From: Mycoplasmatales bacterium
Lineage (GTDB): Bacteria; Bacillota_I; Bacilli_A; Mycoplasmatales; G963692675
DNA length: 64,000 nt
Assembly: GCA_963692675.1 (NCBI GenBank)
Contig: OY830043.1
Location: 20,563 to 84,562, forward strand
Reading direction: 5' to 3'
Positions 40,777-41,040 of this stretch are shown here, piece after piece. Every line of letters starts with the position of its first letter. Within the stretch, counting starts at the first letter, position 1. Below the pieces are notes generated by a model. It was not told where the DNA came from and ran no database searches. It was given only the letters and a program-made list of their open reading frames with translations. The translations under genes and the position numbers were made by a program.

Positions 40777-41040
40777 CTAGTTATAAAAAGTTGGGCTTAC
40801 AGTTTGACTATGAATAATTTCTCTACTGGTAGCAGCTTTTTCACTATTTCATTCTCCTGAAATACCTAATGGTAATTTTAATTTCCCTTCAGATGAAGAA
40901 AGAAGTTTTTCTAATACAGGAACTCCAAATATTAAAGCTAATATTCCTGAAATAATGGTGCTAAAAGCAAAGCCACCAATAATTTTTTTTTCATCTTGCG
41001 CATCTAATTGTAAGAAATCTGCTTGTAATTTTTTATTCAT
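40777..41040 (-). CDS. 87-aa peptide with double-glycine-leader-like N-terminus and one hydrophobic helix
   Basis: ATG 41038-41040 lies 5 nt after AAAGGAGGG. The N-terminus is MNKKLQADFLQLDAQDEKKIIGG, followed by FAFSTIISGILALIFGVPVL. The track stop at 40849 is TGA, and the real stop is TAG at 40777-40779. Confidence 0.55.

Follow-up and report, generated by a model that had tools for sequence, protein, structure and literature searches.

A double-glycine-leader peptide of a mollusc-associated Mycoplasmatales bacterium as a candidate substrate of the genome's single C39-peptidase ABC transporter

A small open reading frame (ORF) lies on the minus strand at positions 40777–41040 of a 64,000-nucleotide stretch (hereafter the window) from the circular, 791-kb genome (29% G+C) of a mollusc-associated Mycoplasmatales bacterium (assembly GCA_963692675.1, contig OY830043.1; the window spans positions 20563–84562 of contig C1 in the genome coordinates, G000). 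Our analysis suggests that the product of this ORF (protein P0001) is a precursor from which the only peptidase-containing ATP-binding cassette (ABC) transporter (PCAT) of the genome would release a regulatory peptide, either exported or associated with the membrane. This reading is our best guess, and we put its probability at roughly 65%. In the proposed route, residues 1–23 would form a double-glycine (GG) leader that is recognized by the N-terminal C39 cysteine-peptidase domain of the PCAT, which would cut after G23 while the peptide is being translocated; the resulting 64-aa product would begin with FAFSTII. Owing to its very hydrophobic N-terminal helix, the product would, in a wall-less cell, most likely stay in or partition into the membrane, and this would put the conserved hairpin (EGKLKLPLGISGEW) together with the aromatic C-terminus outside the cell. 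Cleavage and topology are both predictions from sequence. The parts of the gene and of the predicted precursor are as follows.

Positions 40777–41040, minus strand: whole ORF of 87 codons plus a TAG stop; precursor MNKKLQADFLQLDAQDEKKIIGG / FAFSTII...SPTFYN, with the slash at the predicted cut (from the translation and full-length homologues).
Positions 41045–41053, minus strand: Shine-Dalgarno (SD) sequence AAAGGAGGG, 4 nt 5' of the ATG (read from the sequence).
Positions 40972–41040, minus strand: double-glycine leader, residues 1–23, with F(−15), L(−12), D(−8), and I(−4) and a predicted cut after G23 (from a leader-only profile, a position table, and hhalign).
Positions 40912–40971, minus strand: hydrophobic helix of the predicted mature peptide, residues 24–43 (FAFSTIISGILALIFGVPVL), with a Kyte-Doolittle 19-residue mean of 2.23 (also from structure prediction).
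Positions 40849–40890, minus strand: conserved motif EGKLKLPLGISGEW, residues 51–64, with the family signature G-x-I-K-x-P-x-G-x-x-x-K-W (from alignments A1 and A3 and hhalign).
Positions 40780–40797, minus strand: aromatic C-terminus SPTFYN, family pattern P-x-x-Y, in which Y86 is nearly invariant (from alignment A3).

The frame opens with an ATG at 41038–41040, closes with a TAG at 40777–40779, and contains one TGA codon read as tryptophan (W64, 40849–40851). A first-pass annotation of the window had reported this frame without its strand; the translation is exactly as quoted there, and the strand is now fixed as minus. The ribosome-binding site (RBS) that it had singled out was also recovered, as AAAGGAGGG is the reverse complement of 41045–41053. 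Two relatives from the same family (f1) were found in ENA metagenome assemblies, L072 with 94% and L070 with 71% amino-acid identity, and in both comparisons the ratio of nonsynonymous to synonymous substitution rates (dN/dS) of the ORF is 0.16, which indicates that purifying selection acts on it. Taken together, this ratio, the strong RBS, and the gene order kept in the f1 relatives indicate that the ORF is a real gene. That it is a chance open frame could be argued from the lack of Pfam and NCBIfam matches to P0001 and of the stretch in the RNA runs listed (see below); however, the conservation pattern effectively refutes this, as it combines a dN/dS of 0.16 and a perfect SD sequence with full-length homologues across the whole order and beyond.

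Counting back from G23 (the G22–G23 codons are at 40972–40977), I(−4), E(−7), D(−8), L(−12), and F(−15) all stand where the first-pass annotation had placed them. The leader thus ends in GG and has the hydrophobic residues at −4, −12, and −15 and the acidic residue at −8 that mark the leaders of PCAT or ABC-transporter maturation and secretion (AMS) systems; the hydrophobic residue of such leaders at −7 is replaced by E. This E had been flagged as a departure from the leader pattern; it is indeed present, but it is normal for the peptide family described below. Of 51 family leaders, 89% have a hydrophobic residue at −15, 84% at −12, at least 67% at −4, and 33% at −7, where K or E is common; an acidic residue occupies −8 in 51%. 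The GG column is the most conserved one in the family alignments. We also built a leader-only hidden Markov model (HMM) from 44 leaders of other lineages, leaving out the ORF's own family, and ran it against the genome's complete set of 11,563 stop-to-stop frames with a minimum length of 30 aa. The ORF scored 18.5 bits (E = 3.3e-4) and the next best frame 8.8 bits, which makes the ORF, by this leader model, the only detectable GG-leader frame in the genome. Relatives of P0001 match the TIGR01847, TIGR03949, PF10439, ComC, and BlpC models through the leader, either below or at threshold; one homologue passes the TIGR01847 cut-off (16.4 versus 15.7 bits), and the other homologues stay below it. 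P0001 itself matches neither of the curated leader models TIGR01847 (bacteriocin_sig) and PF10439. The predicted mature peptide has 64 aa and an isoelectric point (pI) of 6.8. AlphaFold2 (AF2) places a helix at residues 23–47 and a beta-hairpin at 51–56/60–65, with a predicted local distance difference test score (pLDDT) of 58, which is too low for fold searches, and the model was used for secondary structure only.

The first-pass annotation had found no C39-peptidase ABC exporter in the window. This holds for the window only, as the genome-wide PF03412 search that it had proposed returned exactly one match (58 bits, C1:687010–687411), at the start of the following gene.

G000:C1:687001–688971: PCAT gene, encoding a 656-aa protein with an N-terminal C39 domain and an ABC ATPase domain (PF00005).

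The protein carries a Walker A motif (GKNSSGKTT), an ABC signature (LSNGQ), and a Walker B motif (CLIDE). When aligned to a canonical C39 domain (from locus L044), its residues Q9, C15, H96, and D112 are invariant with those of canonical C39 domains, and their spacing (Gln at Cys−6, Asp at His+16) matches that of Gln21, Cys27, His101, and Asp117 of LahT (PMC6363468). By this alignment, the genome of the peptide gene also holds a C39-peptidase ABC transporter with the catalytic Cys, His, and Asp. A phmmer search of the PDB returned only ABC ATP-binding domains for the whole PCAT and nothing useful for the C39 domain alone.

Two side observations concern the exporter. A small ORF (119–135 aa) with one N-terminal membrane helix follows the C39-ABC gene directly in four distant Mollicutes (G000:C1:688974–689333; L093, 8102–8473; L094, 10547–10942; L095, 10768–11175); it is probably a conserved accessory partner, in the position that MG_389 has in M. 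genitalium. Locus L044 (G353:C114, from an incomplete f5 genome) encodes a streptococcus-like, ComA-type C39 domain that scores 152 bits, far above the other Mollicute matches, on a 2.5-kb contig; this contig is probably assembly contamination, and it entered the above alignment solely as a canonical reference.

The ORF belongs to a family that we found described nowhere in the literature searched. A word-indexed protein search with P0001 alone returned only two close relatives. In an initial search of 40 related genomes, the weak matches were small ORFs with textbook GG leaders, such as MIKLSKQECDEISGG followed by FAIST and MTDQECQAVSGG followed by FAQF. Of 401 Mycoplasmatales genomes, 114 contain a match to profile A1, built from those ORFs, and nearly all of these have just one; profile A5, adapted to family f15, matches 66 of 82 f15 genomes. 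These counts overturn the view of the first-pass annotation that such a peptide would be unusual for a Mollicute. When the f15 alignment, an independent one, was compared with that of the window's family by hhalign, the two matched with a probability of 96.9% over 61 columns, the motif included. The shared architecture comprises a leader of 15–24 aa that closes with GG or AG, a helix of hydrophobic or amphipathic character, the motif G-x-I-K-x-(P/K)-x-G-x-x-x-K-W, and an aromatic C-terminus; P0001 shows this similarity over its full length, including the hairpin motif and the aromatic C-terminus. The entries from Metamycoplasma/Mycoplasmopsis, from Spiroplasma-like genomes, and from f15 are accordingly true homologues over leader, helix, motif, and aromatic C-terminus, although they share 25–39% identity with the window ORF and differ in leader length; the ORF of the window has a longer leader (23 aa) and an Hsp70 paralog as a neighbour. 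Members are present in seven further families of this class as well; the motif recurs outside the order, and the protein there frequently stops directly behind its W. Family-wide scans found no Pfam or NCBIfam model for these peptides, and a profile search of proteins gave 19 matches, mostly named 'hypothetical protein', the name that NCBI uses for the members, with a few named 'Bacteriocin' in UniRef.

The distribution of the peptide follows that of the C39 domain. The latter is present in 335 of the 401 genomes of the order, nearly always in one copy. Every one of the 114 genomes with an A1 match also has C39, and the peptide is present in none of the 66 without C39 (p = 3e-11 by Fisher test, which here and below is not phylogenetically corrected). 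In family f15, 63 genomes have both peptide and C39, 3 the peptide only, 1 C39 only, and 15 neither (p = 1.3e-12); in genus g37 alone, the corresponding numbers are 9, 1, 1, and 10 (p = 3.5e-4). The leader itself is lost or damaged where C39 is missing. The five genomes of genus g43 (83–91% complete) have no C39 match even at E ≤ 10, and their MPN313-type homologue (L100, L101, L103, and L104, with L102 as a further locus) has kept the mature domain and lost the leader: one or more stop codons are followed by AAGGAGGA, 6 nt, and an ATG, which lies 1–3 residues after the old GG codons, at the site that is the mature N-terminus in relatives. One genome of the g43 group has a decayed leader with GG changed to GN, and in G127, one of the three discordant f15 genomes with the peptide and no C39, GG has become GV. 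Such loss or decay of the leader in C39-less lineages, together with the co-occurrence, is expected if the leader serves the C39 domain. Collectively, the genome comparisons indicate that the peptide and C39 are gained and lost together.

Apparent damage to the peptide gene or the exporter was also seen in several Spiroplasma-like genomes (L025 in G021, L029 in G059, L041 in G048, and L095, 11175–13065, in G010), where GG has changed to IG, peptide frames are truncated or split, or C39 is on a separate ORF of 149 aa; the C39 scores are very weak in some genomes. This pattern suggests an ongoing decay of the peptide-exporter module in the Spiroplasma-like genus.

Several points weigh against a precursor matured by the PCAT. 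Besides the uncorrected tests, the near-universal presence of C39 in the order makes part of the co-occurrence uninformative. Some 165 kb of the circular genome separate the peptide gene from that of the PCAT. Across genomes the two are almost never neighbours, with 7.6 kb the closest spacing seen, and in 8 non-Mycoplasmatales loci no C39 was found up to 9 kb to either side of the peptide gene. Conversely, no GG peptide stands beside the PCAT in the window's genome or within about 6 kb of it in G123. Operon linkage of peptide and PCAT is not the rule. In the LahT co-crystal, Leu−7 of the leader occupies a hydrophobic groove (PMC6363468), and the residue at this position is Glu here. P0001 has no match at E ≤ 1 in Pfam or NCBIfam, TIGR01847 included, and the AF2 model has low confidence. 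Among the sequencing runs listed, the stretch occurs only in those of DNA or unmarked type, from mollusc-associated samples, and the RNA runs hold none of it. Finally, the mature domain persists in the g43 genomes, which are without a PCAT, and deletion of MG_390, the PCAT gene of M. genitalium, left the RecA activation that depends on RrlA (discussed below) intact (PMC6105099); the mature part may therefore not strictly need the exporter.

The chromosomal slot of the gene was compared across the class. In f8 and f30 the order is alaS-(ruvX)-greA-peptide-rplU-ysxB-rpmA-obg; in f22 and f37 it is valS-peptide-radC followed by rplU-ysxB-obg, and in f18 and f35 the same core is followed by mreC-mreD. 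The adjacency of greA and peptide is shared by f8 (L005), f30 (L151 and L152), and the window, in which greA is the upstream member of the conserved slot, (greA or valS)-peptide-(radC or rplU), and the downstream partner differs (Hsp70). By its distribution and its neighbours, the family is ancient and vertically inherited as a stand-alone, single-copy gene and is not a mobile bacteriocin cassette.

This inheritance bears on the first of the two functions that the first-pass annotation had offered, an exported GG-leader peptide of the bacteriocin type. Its export part has gained ground, as the leader is a feature of the whole family and an intact C39-ABC exporter is present, but a bacteriocin is unlikely. 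A role in killing competitors, as a classical class II bacteriocin or some other exported antagonistic peptide, would agree with the GG leader and the hydrophobic or amphipathic helix, with the label 'Bacteriocin' that some Metamycoplasma members bear in UniRef, with weak matches of the leaders to lactococcin G, cerein 7B, and Bacteriocin_IIc models, and with a mollusc-associated community as habitat. However, the neighbours are greA and Hsp70, with no immunity-type small membrane gene alongside; the exporter is unlinked and has no GG peptide beside it; and the gene occurs in most genomes of several families, nearly always as one copy, occupies a housekeeping slot in different families of the class, is under purifying selection, and is retained in obligate parasites with minimal genomes. 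The predicted mature peptide, at pI 6.8, is not cationic, and neither transporter linkage nor the patchy, strain-level distribution of class II bacteriocins was found. We rank this reading low because of the vertical inheritance as a stand-alone gene, the missing immunity gene, and the pI, and favour the view that the gene behaves like that of a housekeeping or regulatory peptide rather than a strain-specific bacteriocin.

GG leaders and PCATs as such are textbook knowledge. With the known PCAT/AMS systems (ComC/ComAB, BlpC, lactococcin G/LagD, and LahA/LahT), the peptide and its exporter share a GG leader of 15–24 aa with hydrophobic residues at −4, −12, and −15 and an acidic one at −8, a C39-ABC fusion with intact Gln, Cys, His, and Asp, and the co-occurrence of peptide and C39. 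Unlike in those systems, the gene of the window is not linked to an exporter, an immunity gene, or a sensor kinase; the family is single-copy, vertically inherited, and kept in a housekeeping slot; position −7 is usually charged; and the mature part, of 60–75 aa in the family, carries a hairpin motif that matches no known bacteriocin or pheromone.

The neighbour radC (JAB-domain, UPF0758) deserves a closer look. The peptide gene is directly upstream of it at loci L146–L150 and L153 and at L003, L095, and L041; the two genes overlap or are 0–19 nt apart in f22, f35, and f37, with one small ORF between them in f18, and the peptide-radC order recurs in Spiroplasma-like genomes. In one of these (L041), peptide and radC read as one fused frame, and a database entry named 'UPF0758 domain-containing protein' (P0021) matches the peptide profile. 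The peptide may be functionally linked to RadC. No RadC homologue was found in the window's genome.

A second lead comes from RrlA (MPN313/MG_220), whose gene shows the strongest induction in the sigma-20 regulon of M. genitalium and is needed for recombination (PMC4446450, PMC6105099). Like the ORF of the window, RrlA/MPN313 of the M. pneumoniae group has a leader, GG, a hydrophobic helix, and a polar tail (the sequences read MYKLEKAQAKQVVGG followed by LSFW...), and it is a single-copy gene in a genome with a single, co-regulated PCAT, MG_390. Neither of the two papers uses the words glycine or peptidase, and the word 'leader' is absent from the 2018 one. The peptide of the window could be an RrlA-like intracellular or membrane accessory factor, which would stabilize an alternative sigma factor and switch on a recombination or gene-transfer regulon, in the way that RrlA acts on sigma-20 in M. 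genitalium, with the PCAT only modulating it. In support of this, the two leaders are aligned by hhalign with a probability of 87%; profile A1 and NF045747 ('MPN313 family') match the same loci in about 11 f2/f5 genomes; MG_220 and MG_390 belong to one regulon (PMC4446450, PMC6105099); and a peptide of the window's type adjoins radC in many Bacilli. In streptococci, radC is competence-induced. However, the similarity is limited to the leader (20 columns by hhalign), with none detectable in the mature part. NF045747, with a cut-off of 100 bits, matches neither P0001 nor the window's genome; it has a weak match to one family member, and in genome searches it matches f5 genomes and the f2/f5 loci shared with A1. 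No homologue of sigma-20 (MG428/MPN626; best phmmer E = 0.78, no PF08281 match) or of RadC was found in the window's genome, and no sigma-20-type promoter (TTGTCA-N18/19-ATTWAT) is in a usable position upstream of the peptide gene. The radC and RrlA leads are not transferable to the window's genome because neither sigma-20 nor RadC was found there. That the peptide works like RrlA is therefore a lead only, given the leader-only alignment, the missing sigma-20 and RadC, and the result of the MG_390 deletion, and we consider it improbable for the peptide of the window.

The genes and sites around the peptide gene in the window are as follows.

Positions 41108–41566, minus strand: greA, directly upstream of the peptide gene with a 64-nt spacer and no terminator-like site.
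Positions 38927–40666, minus strand: Hsp70 paralog (PF00012, E = 7e-144), downstream, starting 110 nt after the peptide ORF; context, outside the conserved unit.
Positions 37535–38821, minus strand: gene for a 428-aa protein after Hsp70, whose relatives carry a GrpE domain and a long acidic tail.
Positions 40738–40747, no strand: downstream arm of an inverted repeat, GCTAAGCTCA (plus-strand letters), 10 nt, G+C-rich, pairing with 41072–41081.
Positions 41072–41081, no strand: upstream arm of the repeat, TGAGCTTAGC (plus-strand letters), between the greA stop and the RBS.

In a scan of the locus for promoters and terminators, neither a convincing promoter belonging to the peptide gene itself nor a terminator behind greA turned up; the two genes probably share a transcript. 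There is a promoter-like site between the peptide and Hsp70 genes. The Hsp70 beside the peptide gene scores below the DnaK equivalog cut-offs (541 versus 648 bits), and a second, 46% identical Hsp70 is encoded at G000:C1:43496–44956 (about 22934–24394 of the window), which bears out the term 'Hsp70 paralog' in the first-pass annotation.

The other function proposed there is an uncleaved N-in membrane anchor for the neighbouring Hsp70. We considered it as a small membrane protein whose first 23 residues would remain cytoplasmic, with the helix as a signal-anchor, and which would work with or tether the Hsp70 paralog and the GrpE-domain protein. The two genes are on the same strand, 110 nt apart, the helix is strongly hydrophobic in P0001 (19-residue mean 2.23), and the order miaB-ECF S-greA-peptide-Hsp70-GrpE-like is kept in both f1 relatives, the more distant of which shares 71% identity; moreover, M. 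genitalium (PMC6105099) and g43 suggest that the mature domain can function apart from the PCAT. However, Hsp70 is adjacent only in the f1 relatives and in no other lineage examined, and the family is far older than this adjacency; a promoter-like site separates the two genes. In family f12 the helix is amphipathic, with 4–6 charged residues and 19-residue means down to 1.03, and hence is not a conserved transmembrane anchor. A tether would also leave the conserved leader, its decay where C39 was lost, and the co-occurrence with C39 without an explanation. The confinement of the Hsp70 adjacency to the ORF's own family and the charged helix of f12 tell against this proposal, and we regard it as unlikely.

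The two arms of the inverted repeat lie in the 5' and 3' spacers and bracket the peptide ORF, and the 791-kb genome has no further copy of either arm. L072 (the 94% relative) has retained the repeat, which there extends to 11 nt; in L070 (71%) it is absent. It could serve in 5'-3' pairing of the mRNA or as a pair of operators. An invertible or regulatory element was considered and set aside because the repeat is conserved only in the relative with 94% identity.

Returning to the favoured precursor matured by the PCAT, the ORF is recast from an odd, bacteriocin-like frame beside Hsp70 to the local member of a class-wide family. The C39-peptidase ABC transporter of mycoplasmas and of the minimal cell has been without a known substrate for some twenty years. 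PMC6609329, citing Dirix 2004, states that mycoplasma C39 proteins have no known substrate with a GG motif, and Breuer et al. (2019) proposed a different, lipoate-related role for the transporter because no GG-motif peptide had been found. The peptide is a concrete candidate for this role, and its family is the best candidate for the missing substrate of the Mollicute exporter. A broader proposal, which we hold tentatively and at somewhat less than even odds, is that the peptide family and RrlA/MPN313 together are the missing natural substrates of this orphan exporter, the near-universal, single-copy, MG_390/SunT-like protein that includes gene 0401 of the minimal cell. The two would then form an ancient module of one substrate and one exporter, inherited from an Erysipelotrichia-like ancestor and kept through extreme genome reduction. 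RrlA, at present regarded as an accessory protein of a sigma factor, may rather be a peptide that bears a leader. The family would stand for a housekeeping type of GG-leader peptide that is ancient, unlinked to its exporter, and without an immunity gene or sensor, unlike the bacteriocin and pheromone paradigms. The old neighbour radC and the need of the sigma-20 regulon for RrlA point to the role that such a peptide might have: if the broader proposal is true, it would act as a conserved signal, autocrine or passed by cell contact, through which functions in recombination or gene transfer are gated, and not as a weapon.

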